64,000 nucleotides of DNA. Source: Heptranchias perlo (lineage: Eukaryota). The notes under the pieces were generated by a model, which was not told the origin of the DNA, made no database searches, and saw nothing but the letters and a program-made list of their open reading frames with translations. The DNA lies in the NCBI RefSeq assembly GCF_035084215.1, contig NC_090349.1, positions 8,680,001 to 8,744,000 of the forward strand. Reading direction: 5' to 3'. Positions within the stretch are counted from its first letter, which is position 1. The number at the start of each line of letters is the position of its first letter. A program made the translations under genes and the position numbers. Positions 1 to 64,000 of this stretch are shown in pieces.

Positions 1-1250
1 AAATGGTTACTGGCCCACACAATCCAACATAAATGGTTACTGGCCCACACCATCCAACATAAATGGTTACTGGCCCACACCATCCAACGTAAATGGTTAC
101 TGGCCCACACCATCCAACGTAAATGGTTACTGGCCCACACCATCCAACGTAAATAGTTACTGGCCCACAGCATCCAACGTAAATGGCTACTGGCCCACAG
201 CATCCAACGTAAATGGCTACTGGCCCACAGCATCCAACGTAAATGGCTACTGGCCCACAGCATCCAACGTAAATGGCTACTGGCCCACAGCATCCAACGT
301 AAATGGCTACTGGCCCACAGCATCCAACGTAAATGGCTACTGGCCCACAGCATCCAACGTAAATGGCTACTGGCCCACAGCATCCAACGTAAATGGCTAC
401 TGGCCCACAGCATCCAACGTAAATGGCTACTGGCCCACAGCATCCAACGTAAATGGCTACTGGCCACAGCATCCAACGTAAATGGTTACTGACCCATAAC
501 ATCCAACATAAATGGTTACTGGCCCATAACATCCAACATAAATGGCTACTGGCCACAGCATCCAACGTAACTGGCAACTGGCCCACACCATCCAACATTT
601 TAAAAAATGTATTAGTTCATGGGATGTGGGCGCGCTGGCGAGGCCAGCATTTATTGCCCATCCCTAATTGCCCTTGAGAAGGTGGTGGTGAGCTGCCTTC
701 TTGAACCACTGCAGTCCAATATAAATGGCAACCGGCCCACACCATCCAACATAAATGGCAACCGGCCCACACCATCCAACATAAATAGCTACTAGTCCAC
801 ACCATCAACATAAATGGCAACCGGCCCACACCATCCAACATAAATGGCTACTGGCCCACAGCATCCAACATAAATGGTTACTAGTCCACACCATCCAACA
901 TAAATGGCTACTGGCCCACACCATCCAACATAAATGGCTACTGGCCCACACCATCCAACATAAATGGCTACTGGCCCACACCATCCAACATAAATGGCTA
1001 CTGGCCCACACCATCGAACATAAATGGTTACTGCCCCACAGCATCCAACAAAAATGGCTACTGGCCCACACCATCCAACATAAATGGCTACTGGTCCACA
1101 CCATCCAACATAAATGGCTACTGGTCCACACCATCCAACATAAATGGCTACTGGCCCACACCATCCAACATAAATGGCTACTGGTCCACACCATCCAACA
1201 TAAATGGCTACTGGTCCACACCATCCAACATAAATGGCTACTGGTCCACA
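1..1250. repeat. 30-bp minisatellite (AAATGGCTACTGGCCCACA[C/G]CATCCAAC[A/G]T), about 38 copies, running off the window start
   Basis: Tandem array directly visible; interrupted at about 599-714. Confidence 0.98.
599..714 (-). mobile_element. 3' end of a non-LTR retrotransposon inserted in the minisatellite
   Basis: Reverse complement of the terminus at 37195-37310 and 26880-26998 (…GGGCAATTAGGGATGGGCAATAAATGC…CCCACATCCCATGAA-polyA). Confidence 0.9.
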
Positions 1251-13254: not shown

Positions 13255-13344
13255 CATGAAATTCCGGATAGATCTGTGAAAGATTGTTCCATCATAATAT
13301 CCCTTTTTGCACAGTTTGATGAAATTTTCACATGCCTTTGGAGT
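13255..13344 (-). CDS. PPIL2: PPIL2 coding exon ([30 protein letters not shown])
   Basis: ttatag|ACTCCAAAG...TTCATG|gtaggt; 90 nt, phase 0 to 0. Contains the cyclophilin FHRSIRNF motif. Confidence 0.96.
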
Positions 13345-18625: not shown

Positions 18626-19091
18626 TAATAATAGCAACTTTTCCAAGCTTTACATCATTGAGCTATTACAGCAGCTTAGAGAACTAAGCCTGATCTTGCT
18701 GGGAAAAAAGATTAAGGTAGAAACATGAAACAAGTTCAAATCATGATGCAGTGTCGAGAGCTAATGTGTTTCCAACGAAGGAGCGGGGTTTATAGCAAGG
18801 CTATCCAGGCGCTAAATGGAACAGTGGACCGCTTATTGCGTGTAGCATCCTCCTCATTCTTTGAAAGTTAATTTCTATATATACAAGTAGGAATCATTAT
18901 CCCACAGAGGATAGAAACTCAACAGGGATAATGCTCCTTTAAGTAAATTTATACCCTGGGCGTCCACTGATCGTCCCCCATTTTGCTGTATCACAGCCTC
19001 AATCTGACGCAGCCCTGCAGTTCTCTGTCTTGGCAAGTCAGTTGTAAACAATTTTACAACACCAAGTTATAGTCCAGCAATTTTATTTTAA

Positions 19092-19132
19092 ATTCACAAG
19101 CTTTCGGAGATTTTCTCCTTCCTCAGGTAAAT
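19092..19132 (-). ncRNA. Minimal type I hammerhead ribozyme in the inverted pLTR
   Basis: Exact reverse complement of 20143-20183. Confidence 0.85.
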
Positions 19133-20142
19133 GTTTCAAGATCTCCTTGAAGCCTACGCATTTATACATATTGAATAATACATGGTGTTTACAGACTGCC
19201 TCTGCAACTGCCCGTTGCCAAGGCAATCACCGTGTTCAGACAGAGAGGTGTCATCTGCAGAACCCCCGAATACACATTCAACAAAAAAACAAACAGGGAA
19301 AAAAAACAGAGAAAAAAAAGAGAAAAAAAACAGAGAGAGAGGCAGAAACATCTGGAAGGCAGAGAGAGCCAGCAAATGACCCATTATATTAAAAACAGAT
19401 AACATTTGTTCGCTGGTGGGGTAACGTGTAGCGTCACATGAACCTCTGCAAGACATGCCAGATCATCGACACAGATACCACCATCACACGAGATGACACC
19501 ACCCACCAGGTGCATGGTTCATACTCCTGTGACTCGGCCAACGTTGTCTACCTCATACGTTGCAGGAAAGGATGCCCCAGAGCATGGTACATTGGCGAGA
19601 CCATGCAGACGCTGCGACAACGGATGAACGGACACCGCGCAACAATCGCCAAACAGGAGGGTTCCCTCCCAGTCGGGGAACACTTCAGCAGTCATGGACA
19701 TTCATCCACCGACCTTCGGGTAAGCGTACTCCAAGGCGGCCTTCGAGACACACGACAACGCAAAATCGTCGAGCAGAAATTGATAGCCAAGTTCCGCACC
19801 CATGAGGACGGCCTCAACCGGGACCTTGGGTTCATGTCACGCTACACGTTACCCCACCAGCGAACAAATGTTATCTGTTTTTAATATAATGGGTCATTTG
19901 CTGGCTCTCTCTGCCTTCCAGATGTTTCTGCCTCTCTCTCTGTTTTTTTTTTCTCTTTTTTTTCTCTGTTTTTTTTCCCTGTTTGTTTTTTTGTTGAATG
20001 TGTATTCGGGGGTTCTGCAGATGACACCTCTCTGTCTGAACACGGTGATTGCCTTGGCAACGGGCAGTTGCAGAGGCAGTCTGTAAACACCATGTATTAT
20101 TCAATATGTATAAATGCGTAGGCTTCAAGGAGATCTTGAAAC

Positions 20143-20183
20143 ATTTACCTGAGGAAGGAGAAAATCTCCGAAAGCTTGTGAAT
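20143..20183 (+). ncRNA. Minimal type I hammerhead ribozyme in the upstream pLTR
   Basis: Stem I ATTTAC/GTGAAT; core CTGAGGA(+A); stem II GGAGA-AAA-TCTCC; GAAA; palindromic AAGCTT in place of stem III. Confidence 0.87.
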
Positions 20184-20269
20184 TTAAAATAAAATTGCTG
20201 GACTATAACTTGGTGTTGTAAAATTGTTTACAATTGTCAACCCCAGTCCATCACCGGCATCTCCACATC

Positions 20270-22978
20270 ATGACTACCATCGACACCACAAACTGCCGGC
20301 TCACAGTGGAAAGGATATCCAAGAAGATCGCGCATTTAGACACAGACATCAAGTTTTTACAGAGCTGCAAGAAAGCAGACAAGATCCTGAAAGGACTCCA
20401 GATCACGAACCCACTCAAGTCCACATACAACTCGGATTACGCTGAGAGACTCTGCCGCCGTACCTCTCGCACACTCCGCAACCATCTCATACACCAACTC
20501 TACAGCAGACGCCACAACCTCGAAACCAAGATAGAGTCCATACTCTCAACCTGTACTCAGGACACAGCAGACCAGCTACGTTATACCGCCAAACAGACGA
20601 GGCAACGGAACTACGCTGCCTACATGAAAACCAAGAGCAGGAAGCTTGAGAAACTCGGCATCACCACCAGCAACGACCAAGCTTCCCCTGGTACCACGGT
20701 TGCAACCACAGGGAAGTCTATTGTCAATCTATCCGACCACACCCTTCAACCAGACGAAATCGAAGTTCTCAGCCGAGGGCTCAATTTCTGCCCCACTACC
20801 AAAATGGACCCCACTAGTCTCGCGGCGGACACAGAGGAATTCATCAGGAGAATGAGGCTCCGGGAATTCTACCACAAACCCCAAGATTTCAGCAGCGAAC
20901 CCAATGAGACAATCGACGATCCGGAACAGCAGACAGAGGGATCCGCGGTACAGCAACCGAAGAGGAAAGAGTCAAACTGGACTCCTCCGGAGGGTCGCTG
21001 CCCTCAGCTGGACATGTATGCTCAAGCTGTCAGGAAATGCGTCAATGCCAGATTCATCAGCCGCACTCAGAAGACAGTCCAGAATGTCACCCGAGCACAA
21101 CGCAACGCCATCAACGCTCTCAAGACCAACCGCAACATCGTCATCAAACCAGCGGACAAAGGAGGAGCCATAGTCATACAGAACAGAACAGACTATTGCA
21201 AAGAAGCATACCGACAACTGGACAACCAGGAACACTACAGACGGTTACCCGCAGATCCGACCAAAGAACACACCCACCAGCTCAACAAACTGATCAAGAC
21301 CTTCGATCCAGACCTTCAAAGCATCCTACGCATTCTCATCCCACGTAATCCCCGCGTGGGAGACTTCTACTGCCTCCCAAAGATACACAAAGCCAACACA
21401 CCCGGACGTCCCATCGTATCAGGCAACGGAACCCTGTGTGAGAACCTCTCTGGATACATCGAGGGCATCCTGAAACCCATCGTACAGGGAACCCCCAGCT
21501 TCTGTCGCGACACTACAGACTTCCTACAAAAACTCAGTACCCACGGACCAGTTGAACCAGGAACACTTCTCACCACGATGGACGTCTCGGCACTATACAC
21601 CAGTATCCCCCACGATGACGGCATCGCTGCGACAGCATCAATACTCAACACCAACAACAGCCAATCTCCGGAAGCCATCCTACAACTCATCCGCTTCATC
21701 CTGGATCACAATGTCTTCACCTTCGATAACCAGTTCTTTACCCAAACACACGGAACAGCCATGGGGACCAAATTCGCACCCCAATACGCCAACATTTTCA
21801 TGCACAAGTTCGAGCAGGACTTCTTCACTGCACAAGACCTCCAACCAACACTATACACCAGATACATCGACGACATTTTCTTTCTATGGACCCACGGCAA
21901 GGAATCACTAAAGAGACTACACGATAACATCAACAAGTTCCATCCCACCATCAAGCTCACCATGGACTACTCCTCAGAATCAGTTTCTTTCTTGGACACA
22001 CGAATCTCCATCAAAGACGGGCACCTCAGCACCTCACTCTACCGCAAGCCCACGGACAACCTCACGATGCTCCACTTTTCCAGCTTCCACCCTAACCACG
22101 TCAAAGAGGCCATCCCCTATGGACAGGCCCTGCGAATACACAGGGTCTGCTCAGACGAGGAGGAACGCGATGGACACCTACAGACGCTGAAAGACGCCCT
22201 AGTAAGAACGGGATATGACGCTCGACTCATCGATCGACAGTTCCGACGGGCCACAGCAAAAAATCGCATAGACCTCCTCAGGAGACTAACACGGGACGCA
22301 ACCAACAGAGTACCCTTTGTCGTCCAGTACTTCCCCGGAGCGGAGAAACTACGCCATGTTCTCCGCAGCCTTCAACATGTCATCAATGAGGACAAACACC
22401 TCGCTATGGCCATCCCCACACCTCCACTACTCGCCTTTAAACAGCCACCCAACCTCAAACAGACCATCGTTCGCAGCAAACTACCCAGCTTTCAAGAGAA
22501 CAGCGTCCACGACGCCACACAACCCTGCCACGGTAACCTCTGCAAGACATGCCAGATCATCGACACAGATACCACCATCACACGAGATGACACCACCCAC
22601 CAGGTGCATGGTTCATACTCCTGTGACTCGGCCAACGTTGTCTACCTCATACGTTGCAGGAAAGGATGCCCCAGAGCATGGTACATTGGCGAGACCATGC
22701 AGACGCTGCGACAACGGATGAACGGACACCGCGCAACAATCGCCAAACAGGAGGGTTCCCTCCCAGTCGGGGAACACTTCAGCAGTCATGGACATTCATC
22801 CACCGACCTTCGGGTAAGCGTACTCCAAGGCGGCCTTCGAGACACACGACAACGCAAAATCGTCGAGCAGAAATTGATAGCCAAGTTCCGCACCCATGAG
22901 GACGGCCTCAACCGGGACCTTGGGTTCATGTCACGCTACACGTTACCCCACCAGCGAACAAATGTTATCTGTTTTTAA
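20270..22978 (+). CDS. PLE polyprotein, 902 aa: reverse transcriptase, Cys-rich linker, GIY-YIG endonuclease
   Basis: Uninterrupted ORF from the first ATG at 20270. Motifs: IKPADKGGA, LPKIHK, GRPIVS, MDVSALYTSIP, GTAMGTKFAP, YIDD, FLD, CxxxxCxxC linker, VVYLIRC...WYIGET, HF. Confidence 0.96.
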   Translation: MTTIDTTNCRLTVERISKKIAHLDTDIKFLQSCKKADKILKGLQITNPLKSTYNSDYAERLCRRTSRTLRNHLIHQLYSRRHNLETKIESILSTCTQDTADQLRYTAKQTRQRNYAAYMKTKSRKLEKLGITTSNDQASPGTTVATTGKSIVNLSDHTLQPDEIEVLSRGLNFCPTTKMDPTSLAADTEEFIRRMRLREFYHKPQDFSSEPNETIDDPEQQTEGSAVQQPKRKESNWTPPEGRCPQLDMYAQAVRKCVNARFISRTQKTVQNVTRAQRNAINALKTNRNIVIKPADKGGAIVIQNRTDYCKEAYRQLDNQEHYRRLPADPTKEHTHQLNKLIKTFDPDLQSILRILIPRNPRVGDFYCLPKIHKANTPGRPIVSGNGTLCENLSGYIEGILKPIVQGTPSFCRDTTDFLQKLSTHGPVEPGTLLTTMDVSALYTSIPHDDGIAATASILNTNNSQSPEAILQLIRFILDHNVFTFDNQFFTQTHGTAMGTKFAPQYANIFMHKFEQDFFTAQDLQPTLYTRYIDDIFFLWTHGKESLKRLHDNINKFHPTIKLTMDYSSESVSFLDTRISIKDGHLSTSLYRKPTDNLTMLHFSSFHPNHVKEAIPYGQALRIHRVCSDEEERDGHLQTLKDALVRTGYDARLIDRQFRRATAKNRIDLLRRLTRDATNRVPFVVQYFPGAEKLRHVLRSLQHVINEDKHLAMAIPTPPLLAFKQPPNLKQTIVRSKLPSFQENSVHDATQPCHGNLCKTCQIIDTDTTITRDDTTHQVHGSYSCDSANVVYLIRCRKGCPRAWYIGETMQTLRQRMNGHRATIAKQEGSLPVGEHFSSHGHSSTDLRVSVLQGGLRDTRQRKIVEQKLIAKFRTHEDGLNRDLGFMSRYTLPHQRTNVICF

Positions 22979-23235
22979 TATAATGGGTCATTTGCTGGCT
23001 CTCTCTGCCTTCCAGATGTTTCTGCCTCTCTCTCTGTTTTTTTTTCTCTTTTTTTTCTCTGTTTTTTTTCCCTGTTTGTTTTTTTGTTGAATGTGTATTC
23101 GGGGGTTCTGCAGATGACACCTCTCTGTCTGAACACGGTGATTGCCTTGGCAACGGGCAGTTGCAGAGGCAGTCTGTAAACACCATGTATTATTCAATAT
23201 GTATAAATGCGTAGGCTTCAAGGAGATCTTGAAAC

Positions 23236-23276
23236 ATTTACCTGAGGAAGGAGAAAATCTCCGAAAGCTTGTGAAT
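23236..23276 (+). ncRNA. Minimal type I hammerhead ribozyme in the downstream pLTR
   Basis: Identical to 20143-20183. Confidence 0.87.
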
Positions 23277-24371
23277 TTAAAATAAAATTGCTGGACTATA
23301 ACTTGGTGTTGTAAAATTGTTTACAATTGTCAACCCCAGTCCATCACCGGCATCTCCACATCTTGGCAAGTCAGCAGTGAGATTTAAGGCAGTAGCAAGA
23401 GTGCTGAAACATTATAGTAATAACAGTGGTACAAAAATCTGCTAAGTAAAACATGGCTCCAAGCTACTGCAGATCAGACAGAGAGAAGAGAGGTTGGTCT
23501 GGCCAGGAAAGAGCTTTGTTAGGTGGAGGTTGAACTTCTTTCCAACACTTTACCTACAACAAATAATCTACCACTATCCATTGTTCATTTAACTTCCACG
23601 CACGAATGGAAAGTACACCAAATTTGTACTGAGCTTCTGCCAAGCCAATTTGGAGCACTATATTGCCAGAGGGTTGTTGTTAAGACGATACTTAGAACAA
23701 GCACATAAAGAGCTCCAGGTCACGGTCCTGATGGTAAACCTTCACCCATTGTCCCAGAAAATGGCGCTGTGTGTCGAATGGATTGTAACCTTTCCTTGCG
23801 TTTCCTGCCCTGCCAAAAAATGACGTTATCACTGTGCAGGGTCAAAGCAACTGTATTGAGTTTTCAACCCAGCTGGTCCAGCAACTCAGTCGCACTGAAA
23901 ACTCTCCACTGAGGCGATAATGCCCTTGAGTGTATCAATTAACATGTAGCTTGCAAAAATGTATTTATTGTTAAAAGCCAAAATTTTGTTATTCATTGAC
24001 ACAAGAGCCTGTTGTGCTTAGTGCAAAATAATAAAGGATCCCCCTTTCTTAAGGCCTACAAGAAGTTACCTAAATTTATAGATTTACACTTTGATATATG
24101 GCTAATAGCCCATTTCTATACTGCAAGAGTAATTTCCTGTCCTGCAGCTGTTGCACCAAATTTATGCTGCAGGGTGGATTTAGTAACAAGTATGCATGTA
24201 CAAGTCAGTCCGCGTGCAAATGCTCATAGATGCAACTTCATCAAAACTAGCTGCAAAACTTCCCCGATGTTGGGGAAGGATGCTATGGGTCAGTAATATT
24301 ACGAAGCACATTGGAGGCTTCCACGGATTCAGCTTACCTACAGCCAAAATAAAATGCCAGACCCAATGGCT

Positions 24372-25621
24372 TATGACAAGGTCCTGAACATTTACCTGAC
24401 GAAGGAGGAAGCCTCCGAAAGCTTGTGAATTTAAAATAAAATTGCTGGACTATAACTTGGTGTTGTAAAATTGTTTACAAAGGTCCCACATGGCAGACTG
24501 GTCAAAAAAGTACAAGTCCATGGGATCCAAGGGAAAGTGGCAAGTTGGCTCCAAAATTGGCTCAGTGGCAGGAAAGGGTAATAGTCGGCGGGTGTTTTTG
24601 TGACTGGAAGGATGTTTCCAGTGGGATTCCGCAGGGCTCAGTACTAGGTCCCTTGCTTTTTGTGATATACATTAATGATTTGGACTTAAATGTAGGGGGC
24701 ATAATTAAGAAGTTTGCAGATGATACAAAAATTAGCCATGTGGTTGATAGTGAGGAGGAAAGCTGTAGACTGCAGGGAGATATCAATGAACTGGTCAGGT
24801 GGGCAGAAAAGTGGCAAATGGAATTCAAACAAGAGAAATGTGAGGTAATGCATTTGGGGAGGGCAAACAAGGCAAGGGAATACACAATAAATGGAAGGAT
24901 ACTGAGAGGTGTAGAGGAAGTGAGAGACCTTGGAGAGCATGTCCACCGATCCCTGAAGGCAGCAGGACAGGTAGATAAAATGGTTAAGAAGGCATATGGA
25001 ACACTTTCCTTTATTAGCACGGGCAGGTTATGCTGGAACTGTATAAAACACTAGTTAGGCCACAGCTTGAGTACTGCGTACAATTCTGGTCACCACATTA
25101 CAGGAAGGATGTAATTGCACTAGAGAGGGTACAGAGGAGATTTACGAGGAAGATGCCAGGACTGGAGAATTTTAGCTATGAGGAAAGATTGGATAGGCTG
25201 GTATTGTTTTCTTTGGAACAGAGGAGGCTGAAGGGTGATTTCATTGAGGTGTACAAAATTATGAGTGGCCTGGATAGAATGGATAGGAAGGGCCTATTTC
25301 CCTTAGCAGAGAGGTCAATAACCAGGGGGCATAGATTTAAAATGATTGGTAGAAGGATTAGAGGGGAGTTAAGGAAAACATTTTTCACCCAGAGGGTGGT
25401 GGGGGTCTGGAACTCACTGCCTGAAAGGATGGTAGAGGCAGAAACCTTCAACTCATTTAAAAAGTACCTGGATGTGCACCTGAAGTGCCATAACCTACAT
25501 GGCTATGCACCAAGTGCTAGAAAGTGGGATTAGGCTGGGTGGTTCATTTTCGGCCAGTGCGGACATAATGGGCCGAATGGCCTCCTTCTGTGCCATAAAT
25601 TTTCTATGATTCTATGATTCA
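24372..25621 (+). mobile_element. CR1 LINE, RT C-terminus to 3' end, interrupted near its 5' end by the solo hammerhead insertion
   Basis: GIPQGSVLGPLLFVIYINDL, KFADDTK and LVRPQLEYCVQFWSP peptides; (TTCTATGA)n tail. Confidence 0.95.
24385..24479 (+). mobile_element. 95-bp solo PLE terminus carrying a complete hammerhead (24390-24430)
   Basis: TSD AAGGTCC (24378-24384; 24480-24486). CTGACGA-A-GGAGG-AAG-CCTCC-GAAAGCTT-GTGAAT; the downstream part is identical to the pLTR through TTTACAA. Confidence 0.9.
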
Positions 25622-34770: not shown

Positions 34771-35500
34771 TACAGCACTTTTAATCTGATTCAGAGGTTT
34801 AAGGAAAAAGAAATAGATACTGAGCCAAAGGAGTGGTGGCTAAAAGCTTGATCAAGGAGGTGGGTTTCAAGGAGGAAAGGAAGCTAGAGGGCTGGAGGGT
34901 TTTAGGGAGGGAATTCCAGAGTGTGAGCCTCGGCAGCTGAAGGCGAGGTTGCCAATGGTGGGGCAAAGGGAGGGGGCGTTTGAAAGGCTGGAGTCACAGG
35001 CATGACTAGGTTGGGGAAGGTTGCAGTGCTGGGAGGTTTAAACAGCTAAGGAGCAGGAGGCCATGGAGCATAATTTTAAGTTTGAGGTATGTTGGGGAAC
35101 TGGGAGCCAATGGATAAGCCGAAATTGAAGTTTATAGAAGTCTGAAAATAGAGCTGATGGGCAAACAGTTTTGGCTGAGTTGAAGTTTACGGGGGATGGG
35201 AGGCCAGAGAGCAGAGCACAGGAATAGTCATATCTTAAGGTGGCAAATGAATGAGGGTTTCAGCGGCAGATAGGCTAAGATGGGGCAGGTGTGGGCGATG
35301 TTACGGAGGTGGAAGTGTGAGGTCCCTGTGATGATGAGGATATGGGCCAGAAGCTCAGCTCAGACTCATAAGGGCATCGACACTGTGAACAGTCTGGCTC
35401 AGCCTGAGACAGTGGCAGGGGAGGAGGGGAGGGTTGGAGTCGGTGGAGAGTGTATGGAGTTTATGGTGGAGTCTGAAGACAATGGCTTTGGTCTTCCCAG

Positions 35501-36646
35501 ACCAAACAGAGACTGTTAGCTAAGATAGAAGCCCATGGAATCGAAGGAAAAGTATGGACTTGGTTAGGAAGTTGGCTGAGCGAAAGGCGACAGAGAGTAG
35601 GGATAATGGGAAGGTACTCACATTGGCAGGATGTGACTAGTGGAGTCCCGCAGGGATCTGTCTTGAGGCCTCAATTATTCACAATATTTATTAACGACTT
35701 AGATGAAGGCATAGAAAGTCTCATATCTAAGTTTGCCGATGACACAAAGATTGGTGGCATTGTAAGCAGTGTGGATGAAAACATAAAATTACAAAGTGAT
35801 ATTGATAGATTAGGTGAATGGGCAAAACTGTGGCAAATGGAATTCAATGTAGACAAATGTGAGGTCATCCATTTTGGATCAAAAAAGGATAGAACAGGGT
35901 GCTTTCTAAATGGTAAAAAGTTAAAAACAGTGGATGTCCAAAGGGACTTAGGGGTTCAGGTACATAGATCATTGAAGTGTCATGAACAGGTGCAGAAAAT
36001 AATCAAGAAGGCTAATGGAATGCTGGCCTTTATATCTAGAGGACTGGAGTACAAGGGGGCAGAAGTTATGCTGCAGCTATACAAAACCCTGGTTAGACCG
36101 CACCTGGATTACTGTGAGCAGTTCTGGGCACCGCACCTTCAGAAGGACATAGTGGCCTTGGAGGGAGCGCAGTGTAGGTTTACTAGAATGATACCCGGAC
36201 TTCAAGGGTTAAGTTACGAGGAGAGATTACACAAATTGGGGTTGTATTCTCTGGAGTTTCGAAGGTTAAGGGGTGATCTGATTGAAGTTTATAAGATATT
36301 AAGGGGAACAGATAGGGTGGATAGAGAGAAACTATTTCCGCTGGTTGGGGATTTTAGGAGTAGGGGGCACAGTCTAAAAATTAGAGCCAGACCTTTCAGG
36401 AGCGAGATTAGAAAACATTTCTACACACAAAGGGTTGTAGAAGTTTGGAATTCTCTTCCGCAAATGGCAATTGATACTAGCTCAATTGCTAAATTTAAAT
36501 CTGAGATAGATAGCTTTTTGGCAACCAAAGGTATTAAGGGATATGGGCCTAAGGCAGGTATATGGAGCTAGATCACAGATCAGCCATGATCTTATCAAAT
36601 GGCGGAGCAGGCACGAGGGGCTGAATGGCCTACTCCTGTTCCTATG
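35501..36646 (+). mobile_element. Young 5'-truncated CR1 with an open ORF2 C-terminus (321 aa from 35606)
   Basis: GVPQGSVL, IFINDL, KFADDTKIG motifs, no stops; TSD TTCCCAG (35494-35500; 36647-36653). Confidence 0.95.
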
Positions 36647-44377: not shown

Positions 44378-44484
44378 CATCTCACAGTGCAGCTCCAGGT
44401 TCACATCCCCCTTGTTCGTGTGGAGTCGGACATACCCCTTCTTTTTGACATAGCGGTAGCGGACCTGGTCATCTTCAATTGCGG
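44378..44484 (-). CDS. PPIL2: PPIL2 coding exon (A-AIEDDQVRYRYVKKKGYVRLHTNKGDVNLELHCEM), start of cyclophilin domain
   Basis: ttcacag|CCGCAATT...GAGATG|gttcgt; 107 nt, phase 1 to 0, compatible with both neighbouring exons. KKKGYVRLHTNKGDxNLELHC is characteristic of PPIL2. Confidence 0.96.
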
Positions 44485-49361: not shown

Positions 49362-51375
49362 CAAATTAGTTGGTAATTGGTTGGGAGGTTGCAGACAGAT
49401 GTGATTGGATGTGTCAAGCAGTGCTCTACAGGGATCTGTACTGGGGCCTCAGCTTTTCACCATATATATCAATGACTTAGATTAAGGAATGGAGAGTTGT
49501 GTATCCAAATTTGTAGATGACACTAAGTAAGGAGGCATAATAAGTTGCAGTAGATGGAAACAGTAAGTTAGAAAGGGACGTAAGACAGAATAAGTCAGTG
49601 GGCAAAACTATGGCAGATGGAGTTTAATGTGAGGTCATCCACTTCGGGTTTGAGAAAGACAAATCGGAATATTTTCTTAATGGCGAGAGATGAGGAGCTG
49701 TGGAGCAGCAAAGAGATATAGGTATCCATGTACACATATCACTAAAAGCTAGTGTACAGGTACAAAAATTAAACAAAAAGACTAATGGAATGTTGGCCTT
49801 TACCTCAAGGGGGTTGGAATACAAAAGTGAGGAAGTGATGCTTCAATTGTACAGCACCTTGGTAAGATCCCATTTGGAGACTGCATTCAATTTTGGACAC
49901 GAACCTCAGGTAGGATATATTGGCCTTCGAGGGGATTCACCAAAATAATACTGGGGCTTAAATGGTTAGAATCAAAGAAAGTTATGGCACAGGACGGGGT
50001 CATTCGGCCCATTATGTCCATGCCAGCTGAAAAAGAGCTATCCAGTTTAATCCCACTTTCCATCACTTGGTCCGTAGCCCTGTAGGTTACGGCATTTCAA
50101 GTGCACAAGTACTTTTTAAATGAGTTGAGGGTTTCTGCCTCTACCACCTTTTCAGGCAGTGAGTTTCAGATCCCTACCACCCTCTGGGTGAAAAAATTTC
50201 TCCTTAGCTCCCCTGTAATCCTTCGACCAAATACTTTGAATCTAAGCCCCCTGGTCACTGACCCCTCTCTGAAGGGAAATAGGTCCTCCCTATCCACTCT
50301 ATCTGGTCCAGTCCTAATTTTATATATCTCAACTAAATCTCCCCTCAGCTTCCTTTGTTCCAAAGAAAACAACCCCGAGTCCATCCAATCTTTTCTCATA
50401 ACTAAAATTCTCCAGCCCTGGCAACATCCTCGTAAATCTCCTCTGCACCCTCTCTAGTGCAATCACATCTTTCCTGTAATGTGATGACCAGAACTGTACG
50501 TAGTGCTCAAGCTGTGGCCTAACCAATGTTTTATACAGTTCTAGCATAACCTCCCTGCTCTTATATTCTATGCCTTGGCTAATAAAGCAAAGTATCCTGT
50601 CAGCCTTTTTAATCACCTTGTCGGCCTGTCCCACCTCCAGGGATCTGCGGACATGCCCACCAAGGTCCCTTTGTTCCTCTACATCTCTCAGTATCCTCCC
50701 ATTTATTGTATACACCCGTGCCTTATTTGCCCTCCCCAAATGCATTACCTCACACTTCTCTGGACTGAATTCCACTTGCTGCTTTTCTGCCCACCTGTCC
50801 AGTCCATTGATATCTTACTGCAGTCTACAGCTTTCCTCCTCACTATCAACTACAAGGCCAATTTTTGTATCATCTGCAAACTTCTTAATCATGGCCCCCA
50901 CATTCAAATCCAAATGTCCAAGTCCAAGTTGAATTATAATGACAGTTTGAATAAACTTGGTTTGTATTCCTTGAGTTTGGACGGTTGGGAGTGACCTAAT
51001 CGAGGTCTTTAAAATAATTAAGGGACTTGTTAAGGTACATACAGAGAAACTATTTCCTTTGGTGGTGGTGGGGGGAGAAAAATCCAGAACCAGAGGGCAT
51101 AATCTTAAAATTAGAGCTAGACTATTTAAGAGAAATAAGGAAGCACTTTTTCACACAAATGGTAGTGGAAATCTGGAACACTCTCTCCCAAAACGGCTGT
51201 GGATGTTGAGTCAATTGTAAATTTCAAGACTGAGATTGATAGATTTTGTTACATAAAGGTATCAAGGGATATGGAGCAAAGATGGGTAAGTGGAGTTGAG
51301 GTACAGATCAGGCATGATCTAATAGAATGGTGGAACAGGCTTGAGGGGCTGAATGGCCTACGCTTCCTATGTTCG
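49362..51375 (+). mobile_element. CR1 fragment with a nested opposite-strand CR1 (about 49968-50912)
   Basis: The host CR1 breaks at about 49967 and resumes at about 50928. The insert encodes LVRPQLEHYVQFWSSHYRKD on the minus strand. Confidence 0.9.
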
Positions 51376-58301: not shown

Positions 58302-59222
58302 ATTACATAGAATGTACAGCACATTCAGCCCAACAGGTCCATGCCATGTTTACATTCCACATGAACCTCCTCCCACCCTTTTTCATCTAACCCCATCAAC
58401 ATATCCTTCTATTCCATTCTCCCTCGTGTGTTTATCTAGCTTCCCTTAAATGTATCTATGCAAGTCGATGTGATCGCTTTGGAGAGGGTGCAGAGGAGAT
58501 TCACCAGGATGTTACCAGGGCTGGAGCGCTTCAGCTATGAAGAGAGACTGGGAAGATTGGGTTTGTTTTCCTTGGAGCAGAGGAGGCTGAGGGGGGACAT
58601 GATTGAGGTGTACAAAATTATGAGGGGCACAGATAGGATGGATACTAAGGAGCTTTTTCCCTTCGTTGAGGGTTCTATAACAAGGGGACATAGATTCAAG
58701 GTAAAAGGCGGGAGGTTTAGAGGGGATTTGAGAAAGAACTTTTTCACCCAGAGGGTGGTTGGAGTCTGGAACTCACTGTCTGAAAGGGTTGTGGAGGCAG
58801 GAACCCTCACAACATTCAAGAAGCATTTGGATGAGCACTTGAAATGCCATAGCATACAAGGCTACGGACCAAATGCTGGAATATGGGATTAGAGTAGACA
58901 GGGCTGATGGCCGGCGTGGACACGATGGGCCGAAGGGCCTCTATCCGTGCTGTATAACTCTATGACTCTAAGTCGCCTCAACTTCTCCTAGTGGTAACAA
59001 GTTCCACATTCTAATCACTCTCTGGATAAAGAAGTTTCTCCTGAATTCCCTATTGGATTTATTAGTGACTATCCTGTATTTATGGCCCCTAGTTCAGTCT
59101 CCCCCGCAAGTGGGAACATCTTCTCTACGTCTACCCTATCAAACCCTTTCATAATCTTAAAGACTTCGATCACCCCTCAGTCTTCTCTTTTCTAGTCCCA
59201 GTCTGTTCAATCTTTCCTGATA
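58302..59222 (-). mobile_element. CR1 3' fragment split by a nested plus-strand CR1
   Basis: Minus-strand CR1 tail at about 58302-58461, resuming at about 58976. Confidence 0.75.
58468..58969 (+). mobile_element. Young CR1 3' fragment with TSD
   Basis: Open frame DVIALERVQRRFTRMLPG...GYGPNAGIWD; TSD AAGTCG (58462-58467; 58970-58975). Confidence 0.92.
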
Positions 59223-59589: not shown

Positions 59590-60793
59590 AAATTCTTTAA
59601 TGAAGTAACGGAGAGAGTTGATGAGGGTAGTGCGGTTGATGATGTGTATATGGACTTTAAAAAGGCATTTGAAAAAGTACCAAATAATAGACTTGTTAGC
59701 AAAATTAAAGCCCATGGGATATACGGACAGTGGCAACATAGATACAATATTGGCTAAGGGACAGAAAACAGACAGTAGTGGTGAATGGTTGTTTTTCAGA
59801 CCGGAGGGAAGTATACAGTGGTGTTCCCCAGGGTTAAGTATTAAGACCATTGCTCTTTTTGGTGTATGTTAATGACCTGGATTTGGGCATACAGAGTATA
59901 ATTTCAAAGCTGGCACGAAACGTGGAAATGTAGTAATCAACATGGAGGATAGTAACATGACTTCAGGAGGACATAGACAATGTGGTGAAATGGGCAGACA
60001 CATGGCAGATGAAATTTAACGCAGAGAAGTGTGAAGTGATACATTTTGGTAGGAAGAATGAGGAGAGGCATATAAACTAAATGATACAATTTTAAAGGGG
60101 GTACAGGAACAGAGTGACCTAGGGGTGTGTGTACACAAATCTTTGAAAGTGGCAGGACAAGTTGAGAAGGTTGATAAAAAAGCATATGAGATCCTTGGGT
60201 TTATTAACAGAGGCATAGAGTACAAAAGCAAGGAAATTATGTTACACCTTTATAAATCACTGGTTAGGCCTCAGCTGGAGTGTTATGTTCAATTCTGGGC
60301 ACCACACTTTAGGAAGGATGTCAAGGTCTTAGAGAGGATGCACAAGAGGTTTACCAGGATGATTCCAGGGATGAGGGACTTCAGTTATGTGGAGACTGGA
60401 GAAGCTGGGATTGTTCTCCTTGGAACAGAGAAGGTTGAGAGAAGATTTGATGGAGGTATTTAAAATCATGAAGGGTCAAGACAGAATCGATAGAGAGAAA
60501 CTGTTCCCTTTGGCGGAAGGGTCAAAAACCAGAGGACATGGATTTAAGGTGATTGGCAAAAGAACCAGAGGCTACACGAGGAAACATTTTTTTTTTACGC
60601 AGTGAGTTGTTTTGATCTGGAATACACTGCCTGACTTTCAAAAGGGAATTGGATATATATTGAAGGTAAAACATTTACAGAGCTATAGGGGGAAAGAGCA
60701 GGGGAGTGACGTTAATTGGATAATCCTGCCGAAGAGCCGGCACAGGCACGATGAGACAAATGGCCTCCTCCTGTGCTGTATCATACTATGATT
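59590..60793 (+). mobile_element. CR1 RT to 3' end, frameshifted
   Basis: LVRPQLECYVQFWAPHFRKDV peptide; same subfamily as 15970-17140. Confidence 0.9.
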
Positions 60794-62515: not shown

Positions 62516-64000
62516 GGCCCCGATATTACCAGGGAGGCGGGTTGGCGGGGGGGGAAGAGGGGGGGGGGGCGACTGGGCGCATGGGTAACCTGCCCAGTAA
62601 AATCCGTCCGTTCCCCACGCGATCGCGGGTAAATTGAAGCCACTTACCGTGGCTTCCGGGTTTCCCGCTGTCAACCAGCGCAGCAGGCGGACTGTGTACC
62701 CGCATCACAGGCTGTCAGCAGGAGGAGCTCTATTTGAAGGGGCAGTCTTCCAACGCTGCTCCTGGAGCAAACACCCAAAATTATAGAATAGGGCAGCCCA
62801 AGGGAAAGGCTGCTCCCAGATTTACTGATGCTTAATTCCAGGTCCTACTGGATGGGGTGAGGAGGAGGAGGAGGAGGAGGAGGAATATATTCTACCTGGC
62901 GGACGGAAGGATGTGGCCTGCCTCTGCCACCAAGAAGGCCTGGCTCGAGGTGGCAGAGGAGGTCACCAGCAGCAGCAACGTCTCCCACACCTGGATCCAG
63001 TGCAGGAAGCGCTTCACCGCACCCACCCCGCATCTCCTTCTGCACAGCCAACACTACTCTATCACATCACTCCTCACACCCACTCAAAGCTCATCCTCAA
63101 CTTACCTGCACTTACTCACCACTTCCTCGCCTCCCCAATACTCATCCCACCACTACCACTCAACCCAATCCTCATACAATGTCATCGCTCTATCTCATAC
63201 TCACTCTCTGATGCATCTCTTTCACAGTCAGCCTCACCCAAACCAATGCATTCAGCGGTTGGCCACGTCACCACCACTCACTCATGCCTCTCTACTTTCT
63301 CCCCTCATGGGAGAAGAGAGCCCAGAATGCACAGGAGAGGGCGTGGACCGGAGGGGGGCCGTAACATCTAGTCGTCCTCACAGACGCGGAGCAGGAGGCT
63401 CTGGAACTGAGCCACACCCTCGAGTGCCTGACCGTCGGGGACGCCGAGACTGGCACCCGACAAACGGCTGGTGACAGAATGGTTAACATTCAGCACACAC
63501 AATAGCAATTGATATTAACATGCCTTGCCATCTTCAGCAACTCAACATCTGTCATCATGCTTAATATTGCCTTCTGTTCTCTTACAGGGCCTTCAGCGAC
63601 CGCTGTGACGGCGGAGGGAGATTCCTCAGAGGACCTGCAGCCTCTGAGGGGGCACCATCACATCTGAGCGAGCCATCTACCAGCAGATACACACACCTCG
63701 GTGGGTCCCCGTCCTCAGTTAGCTGGGGTCGCACAAGATGAGTCACCACACACGTGAGCACGAGAAGACACTGGTGGCAGGGGCAACTGTGGAGAGTCTG
63801 CGTCGGTGGGAGCACTCTTCTCCAGGCTCTGCTCAGCTGGATACAGATGCTGAACCTTGGGGGCCATCCATGAAAAGGAGAATGATCGAGGGGCAGCAGC
63901 ACATTTGCGAGGCGCTGGAACAGGTGCCAAGCGCACTCTCTACAATCACGCAGAGGATGGAGGAGTCCAACTCCTGCATGAGTGGAATGGTTGCACAGGT
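62516..64000 (+). mobile_element. PIF/Harbinger DNA transposon left part, with a pseudogenised Myb/SANT-like ORF; runs off the window
   Basis: Abrupt GC rise at GGCCCCGATATTACC (putative TIR). Reads KAAPRFTDA*FQVLLDGVRRR...IFY...TKKAWLEVAEEV...TWIQCRKRF, a Myb/SANT-like (NAIF1/MSANTD-type) domain with an in-frame stop. Splice acceptor ttctcttacag at about 63587. Confidence 0.75.

Follow-up and report, generated by a model that had tools for sequence, protein, structure and literature searches.

A young Neptune-type Penelope-like retroelement in a PPIL2 intron of the shark Heptranchias perlo and its probable formation by priming on both target strands

The window analysed here, a stretch of 64 kb from the genome of the shark Heptranchias perlo, contains four exons of PPIL2 on the minus strand, mapped with shark PPIL2 proteins (Table 1). 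The exons are in frame, with contiguous codons and AG/GT ends; PPIL2 is also the PDB match (E=7e-14) of an ORF found on the minus strand near 44400. All 103 exon residues are identical in PPIL2 of H. perlo, 101 in Heterodontus and in Pristiophorus, 96 in Amblyraja and 95 in Callorhinchus. Between codons 299 and 300 the gene is interrupted by an intron of 31,033 bp (44377-13345), which harbours, antisense to the gene, a Penelope-like retroelement (PLE) at 19042-23360, flanked by a 14-bp target-site duplication (TSD). A preliminary description of this DNA had placed the element in a PPIL2 intron and set it against the decayed repeats around it, and both statements are borne out, the first by the four mapped exons and the second by self-BLAST, in which the other dispersed repeats give 86 pairs of at least 150 bp with a median identity of 75%, the best pair outside the PLE reaching 90.8%. 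Decayed, CpG-depleted LINE reverse transcriptase (RT) fragments fill the PPIL2 introns (24440-25533, 35477-36571, 50329-50814, 58440-58892 and 60062-60463); two of them were put to Pfam and both matched RVT_1. The first 1250 bp of the window (1-1250) are a 30-bp minisatellite (41.6 copies, 86% matches), and a GC-rich ORF of 212 aa on the plus strand (62836-63474), with no Pfam match, resembles by eye a Myb/SANT protein of a type that we presume to be Harbinger-like.

Table 1. Features of the PPIL2 locus and of the retroelement (window coordinates)
Feature	Position	Strand	Basis or remarks
PPIL2 exon	55329-55254	-	shark PPIL2 protein mapping
PPIL2 exon, aa 264-299, upstream of host intron	44378..44484	-	protein mapping
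PPIL2 exon, aa 300-329, downstream of host intron	13255..13344	-	protein mapping
PPIL2 exon	6951-6918	-	shark PPIL2 protein mapping
Left target-site duplication, 14 bp	19028..19041	.	exact 14-mer match to copy at 23361
Inverted 5'-truncated pLTR, 403 bp (= 22923-23326), without the 34-36-nt tail	19042..19444	-	self-alignment; T8 run
Predicted hammerhead core, inverted copy	19098..19126	-	descriptor; sole copy in sense to PPIL2 pre-mRNA
5'-truncated upstream unit (5' pLTR): EN half of ORF, 3' UTR, tail	19441..20269	+	self-alignment
4-nt microhomology at inversion junction, common to inverted and direct copies	19441..19444	.	overlap of the two alignments
Predicted hammerhead core, 5' pLTR	20149..20177	+	descriptor; predicted cut after 20177, 92 nt before ORF ATG
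Stop-free ORF, 902 aa	20270..22978	+	N-terminal helical region, DKG motif (293-300), RT, linker, GIY-YIG EN
Codon 40 (CTG), Leu in place of the Pro of homologues (P40L)	20387..20389	+	homologue alignment
3' UTR of full unit (non-coding part of 3' pLTR), T9 run	22979..23360	+	sequence and self-alignment
Predicted hammerhead core, 3' pLTR	23242..23270	+	6-bp stem I; extra nt before 5-bp stem II; palindromic 15.2/16.2
34-36-nt tail between two inferred RT start sites	23327..23360	+	end comparison; starts at centre of imperfect palindrome
Right target-site duplication	23361..23374	.	first 2 nt also microhomology with element end
Separate 94-bp 5'-truncated insertion, same PLE family	24387..24480	+	90/94 identical; tail-less end; 6-7-bp TSD

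A scan of both strands of the 64-kb window found the 14-mer of the TSD only in its two flanking positions, exact on both sides, as had been claimed. Since the first two nucleotides of the right copy also match the element end, the 3' end of the element is either 23360 or 23362. The 5' direct unit (19441-20269) and the 3' one (22535-23362) agree at 829 of 829 aligned bases and differ by one T indel, and the inverted pLTR copy carries a single substitution, at 19435, which sits 6-9 nt from the inversion junction. The homopolymer T run counts 8 in the inverted, 10 in the 5' direct and 9 in the 3' copy; alignment thus confirmed what had first been seen by eye, namely three pLTR copies that differ in the length of this run and in one base near the junction. 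With its 829-bp direct and 403-bp inverted pLTRs, a tail of 34-36 nt at one end and the 14-bp TSD, the insertion has the layout of EN+ PLEs. Its right end corresponds to the tail-including site and its left, inverted end to the tail-less site, and each of them adjoins a copy of the TSD.

The separate insertion at 24387 lies within a LINE which we take to be of the CR1 type, antisense to PPIL2. It shares its end base with the inverted pLTR, both stopping 34-36 nt before the full 3' end, and this coincidence of two independent ends at one base matches the two RT start sites reported for the PLE of the green anole (PMC11167929). The four differences of the 94-bp insertion fall within a span of 13 nt (P=0.006, simulation).

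The upstream unit (plus strand) also contains a candidate retained intron, with a consensus-like donor at 19720 and pyrimidine-rich acceptors at 19921 and, by eye, at 20021; introns in PLE 5' UTRs are known. The 5' pLTR, which has a TATA-like motif at 20109, is presumed to be the promoter of the full unit, by analogy with the role of pLTRs that can be derived from PMC8557442 and PMC11167929. The locus possesses in any case the upstream pLTR that is required for acting as a source.

The long ORF reported in the preliminary description proved to be free of stops over its 902 codons and matches the Pfam family RVT_1 (E=3e-10), while its C-terminal 162 aa match GIY-YIG just short of the curated cut-off (E=4.5e-4). 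Atlas clusters matching the ORF carry RVT_1/GIY-YIG at 0.98, and a PDB sequence search with the element protein returned one weak RT match (E=0.88). In a 97-sequence alignment the RT residues D438 and those of YIDD 532-535 (D534, D535) are present and conserved, as are the cysteines of the linker, C753-X4-C758-X2-C761, which fits the pattern CX2-5CxxC in a regular-expression search, and the endonuclease (EN) residues Y792, C796, C800, Y805, G807, R816, H820, H836, E866 and N881. The CCHH motif is likewise present (regular-expression match at 792), its two Cys lying between GIY and YIG.

The ORF is nevertheless not pristine. At columns with at least 90% conservation the window protein departs at 4 of 120, and three of these departures are common to other shark copies, which leaves P40L as the only change specific to this copy. 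Residue 40 is Pro in 45 of the 46 homologues that cover the position, and also in the H. perlo protein P0252. P40L probably arose by a CpG transition, and it may represent a defect of this copy. A further 16 residues differ from every covering H. perlo protein among the matches listed, some of them by CpG-type changes; those inside the duplicated region are present in both direct copies and are therefore older than the insertion. At its C-terminus (22943-22978, plus strand) the ORF extends 11 aa beyond the end of the H. perlo proteins P0001 and P0002, apparently via stop loss, and since the extension is found in all pLTR copies, it was inherited from the source. The earlier suggestion that the element may be transposition-competent is weakened for this copy: the ORF is open and the catalytic and Zn-finger residues are present, but the change of a Pro found in nearly all homologues makes competence doubtful. 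Because of P40L we give the protein of this copy, judged from its sequence, about an even chance of working.

Motifs read by eye fit a Neptune-type PLE, as had been claimed from RT plus GIY-YIG and a Cys-rich linker. The linker was described in Neptune and Nematis and as absent from Poseidon (PMC8557442), and the presence of this Zn-finger between RT and EN rules out the Penelope/Poseidon clade. Naiad and Chlamys are ruled out by the C-terminal position of the EN, which is N-terminal in these groups, and by the predicted hammerhead, the canonical form of which these groups lack. Compared by eye with the supplementary alignments of PMC8557442 (three references per clade, from which the Nematis, Neptune and Poseidon patterns were also taken), the element carries the Neptune-like block KxADKGGA..RQL..PKIHK and a long linker spacer; membership in Nematis fails, as neither the short linker-to-GIY spacer nor the SDKxG[ED]F-type motif is found. 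Regular-expression searches among the 120 homologues listed found KxADKGGA in 82, and neither the Nematis-like SDKxG[ED]F nor the Poseidon-like ADKG[RN] in any; the spacer is long in 91 of them, and the short Nematis-like form occurs in none (0/120). That the element belongs instead to Nematis or to another linker-bearing PLE we regard as very improbable in view of these counts, even if the linker is common to both clades, Neptune is paraphyletic in PMC8557442, and the assignment rests on motifs, our tree having no labelled PLE references.

Using our own descriptor we found one minimal type-I hammerhead core per pLTR. The scan gave four matches in the window, all in this PLE family, and none in 30 random 64-kb sequences. 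Stem II is preceded by one extra nucleotide in the hammerheads of the pLTRs, which also have G10.1-C11.1 and a palindromic 15.2/16.2, all of them traits listed in PMC4209133. The fourth match lies in the 94-bp insertion, where the four changes hit the loop, the core position that is variable, and a stem II pair on both of its sides, the changes in the pair being compensatory. Rfam reported nothing at gathering score over the 64 kb and one chance match (E=2) around the element; the RNA folds of the ribozyme region are modestly stable (z -1.4 and -1.9), and a two-copy cofold did not yield the stem-III dimer. The ribozyme is therefore predicted from core sequence, stems and covariation and not from folding energy. 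The distance from ribozyme to ribozyme is 3093 nt, and no upstream ATG lies between the predicted cut (20177) and the ATG of the ORF. In the PPIL2 pre-mRNA the inverted and 5' pLTRs (19042-20233) would be able to form a perfect duplex of about 400 bp, which might serve as a substrate for editing. Cleavage of the PPIL2 transcript by the inverted-copy ribozyme is unlikely because this ribozyme can pair into the 400-bp duplex.

Protein searches yielded 777 matches among 8000 candidates and 388 among 3091, and 120 of each were listed. Of the proteins listed, seven named ones from H. perlo have 91.6-99.2% identity over the aligned parts, followed by 15 proteins of Scyliorhinus, Mustelus and Chiloscyllium (79.7-88.8%) and then by turtle, gecko, frog, crinoid and hemichordate proteins (about 41-48%). 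The uncharacterized RT proteins of H. perlo (P0001, P0003, P0244, P0245, P0252) and of the three other sharks belong to the same family as the element, but they are partial gene models that bear no element annotation, and the 240 matches listed, which are gene predictions and not an ORF census, include no full-length named shark homologue. One further H. perlo model, P0016 (epn2 isoform X2), joins epsin-2 to about 260 aa of the PLE RT region at 96% identity and could be an exonized copy or an annotation artefact. In a quick tree of 41 rows (rows aligning over less than 150 aa were to be dropped, and none was), the window protein groups with the H. perlo copies inside a single shark group. The turtle and gecko elements group there with crinoid and hemichordate proteins (SH-aLRT 98) and not with the sharks, which may point to paralogous lineages or to transfer. 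For the shark element itself, horizontal transfer is not supported by the sequences: the shark proteins form one group and identity falls with host distance. Domestication is ruled out by the TSD, the pLTRs and the many dispersed relatives. Against older copies, the window protein has V626 and L673 in common with P0244 and P0245, and therefore the subfamilies are nested, with this copy near the tip.

The near-identical relative that one would look for after a recent insertion was found among the proteins: P0252 differs from the window protein at 2 of 257 aa (99.2% over residues 1-257) and is encoded on a contig of 42.9 Mb, different from the 48.5-Mb contig that carries H. perlo PPIL2. P0252 has in-frame tail residues before its ATG, and therefore the junction between pLTR and ORF exists at another locus. 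This speaks against an assembly artefact of collapsed repeat copies as the origin of the tandem and inverted arrangement, as do the perfect flanking TSD, the lack of any N in the window and the biologically specific tail-less end; we hold such an artefact to be hardly credible, even though assembly problems are frequent with such structures (PMC8557442) and the homopolymer differences could be read errors.

The element was also described as very recent. It is indeed young in comparison with the neighbouring repeats, as indicated by the 99%-identical relative and by a CpG observed/expected ratio of 0.85 in the ORF, compared with 0.30 outside and with values of 0-0.34 for five fragments of LINE ORFs, but for its age there is only a limit set by divergence, which amounts to about 2-3 million generations or less. 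Among the pLTR copies none of 78 CpGs has changed, and the unique ORF holds 118 CpGs. Counting 0 or 1 substitution in 2060 site-lineages limits the divergence to 0.15-0.23% per site (95% upper bound). At 7e-10 per generation, a rate from another shark, the epaulette shark (PMC10587355), this bound translates into 2.1-3.3 million generations. If a tenfold CpG rate is assumed, it falls to 1.5-2.3 million, and across the confidence interval of the epaulette-shark rate it spans 1-16 million; the lower bound is zero. These values invite comparison with the time to fixation. In standard theory, a neutral variant takes 4Ne generations to become fixed. With Ne of about 710,000 (PMC10587355), a value from another species, this amounts to about 2.8 million generations. 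As the age bound is comparable, it is plausible, by analogy, that the insertion is still polymorphic.

On the same data the copy could be fixed, inactive and some millions of years old, its pristine look being due to slow mutation in sharks, and P40L and the other CpG-type changes having arisen after insertion or come from a crippled source. We take this to be a serious possibility, with somewhat less than an even chance: it agrees with the upper age bound of 1.5-3.3 million generations, with P40L, with the two residues at which P0252 differs and with the expectation that at 0.23% divergence an ORF of such size would still be open in about half of all cases (under an assumed indel rate). However, the absence of substitutions in 829 bp and of changed CpGs across the pLTR copies means that few changes can postdate the insertion, and the data fit an age of zero equally well. 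This alternative bears on age and activity alone and does not conflict with priming on two strands. The most far-reaching reading is that a hexanchiform shark has a Neptune family in which transposition continues to this day, and that the PPIL2 insertion, still segregating, documents in clean form how both strands were primed at two RNA start sites; this seems to us rather unlikely, though worth stating. If it were true, the family would offer ready natural material with which a Neptune-clade element could be reconstituted biochemically, and P40L would be a natural probe of the unstudied N-terminal motif P-[KR]-G-L.

We are quite confident of a more limited conclusion, namely that the locus contains a young, real insertion of a Neptune-type PLE, from a shark family transposing within low divergence of the present, probably formed by priming on both strands. 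We infer the enzymatic steps behind the observed ends and junctions from the anole PLE, whose purified protein was reported to cut and extend both target strands, starting at two neighbouring sites of the RNA by which the tail is delimited (PMC11167929). By this analogy the GIY-YIG domain would nick the two target strands 14 bp apart, and one 3'-OH would serve as primer for reverse transcription from the RNA start site that lies downstream and includes the tail (23360-23362), the cDNA running through one full unit of 3093 nt and 829 nt of the next to give the partial tandem. The latter would require a multimeric or circular template, the circular form having been proposed in PMC4209133. The other 3'-OH would prime at the upstream, tail-less start site (23326) and copy about 400 nt the opposite way, after which the two cDNAs would join over the 4-nt microhomology and repair would yield the TSD. 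The hammerheads probably help to process multimeric or circular RNA and need not be essential; the ribozyme of the anole PLE was found to be protein-assisted and dispensable in vitro (PMC11167929).

Alternatively, the inverted pLTR could stem from self-priming or fold-back of a single cDNA or antisense RNA, and not from priming on the second target strand. Self-priming was favoured by Arkhipova et al. for the junction palindromes of rotifer PLEs (PMC3846280), and the lone substitution near the junction could mark a template switch. The shark junction has only a 4-nt overlap and no long palindrome, however, and the inverted copy has its outer end against the TSD precisely at the tail-less site, where the independent direct insertion ends as well, so that we consider this origin improbable. 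From one locus, twin priming on one RNA, priming on two RNAs and self-priming are inseparable.

The element is ordinary for its class and its architecture is textbook, being also the typical arrangement in Fig. 2 of PMC8557442. Like the Neptune references of that paper (Neptune1_Ac, DreriNep1, Neptune1_Nv/Ap), it has a single ORF with RT followed by a C-terminal GIY-YIG with CCHH, the CX2-5CxxC linker with a long spacer, the KxADKGGA..RQL..PKIHK block and a pLTR hammerhead; it differs in its shark lineage, in its target, which is ordinary intron sequence and not the microsatellite bias discussed for Neptune, and in P40L and the C-terminal extension relative to P0001/P0002. Poseidon_Ac (PAc) of the green anole, which was reconstituted in vitro (PMC11167929), is alike in the partial tandem, the tail with two start sites, both-strand priming and a minimal hammerhead, but it lacks the Zn linker, prefers AT-rich targets and has its tail and ribozyme cut site inside the start of the ORF, whereas both lie upstream of the ATG in the shark element. 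Pen2a_Av from Adineta vaga (PMC3846280) shares the two direct and one inverted pLTRs, the TSD and the one-end tail; it is a member of the Penelope/Poseidon group with a stop in its ORF and a pLTR of 218 bp (829 bp in the shark). The active Neptune subfamilies of Fundulus killifish (PMC12602865) are, like the present one, vertebrate, with intact RT and EN and recent spread; their activity is backed by copy-number gain in hybrids, the case for the shark family by one locus and protein relatives only. Active vertebrate PLEs are thus already known, from anole Poseidon in vitro (PMC11167929) and from Fundulus Neptune (PMC12602865). Neptune has been reported as widespread in vertebrates (10.64898/2026.07.22.740005), and PLEs as expanded in whale-shark introns (10.1101/443036).

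Neptune elements have been called poorly characterized (PMC12602865), and the in vitro work that we found on PLEs concerns the Penelope/Poseidon clade (PMC11167929, PMC8557442). Our literature search, with thin coverage of subscription journals and with Repbase/Dfam outside its scope, found no published description of this shark Neptune family, no reconstituted Neptune-clade element and nothing on turtle Neptune. Being nearly pristine, and with its exact ends, its ribozyme and the two start sites all visible, this copy would be a good construct to test the role of the Zn linker in targeting, and the same construct could be useful for studying how inverted pLTRs form. The insertion itself points to recent retrotransposition in a vertebrate lineage that mutates slowly.
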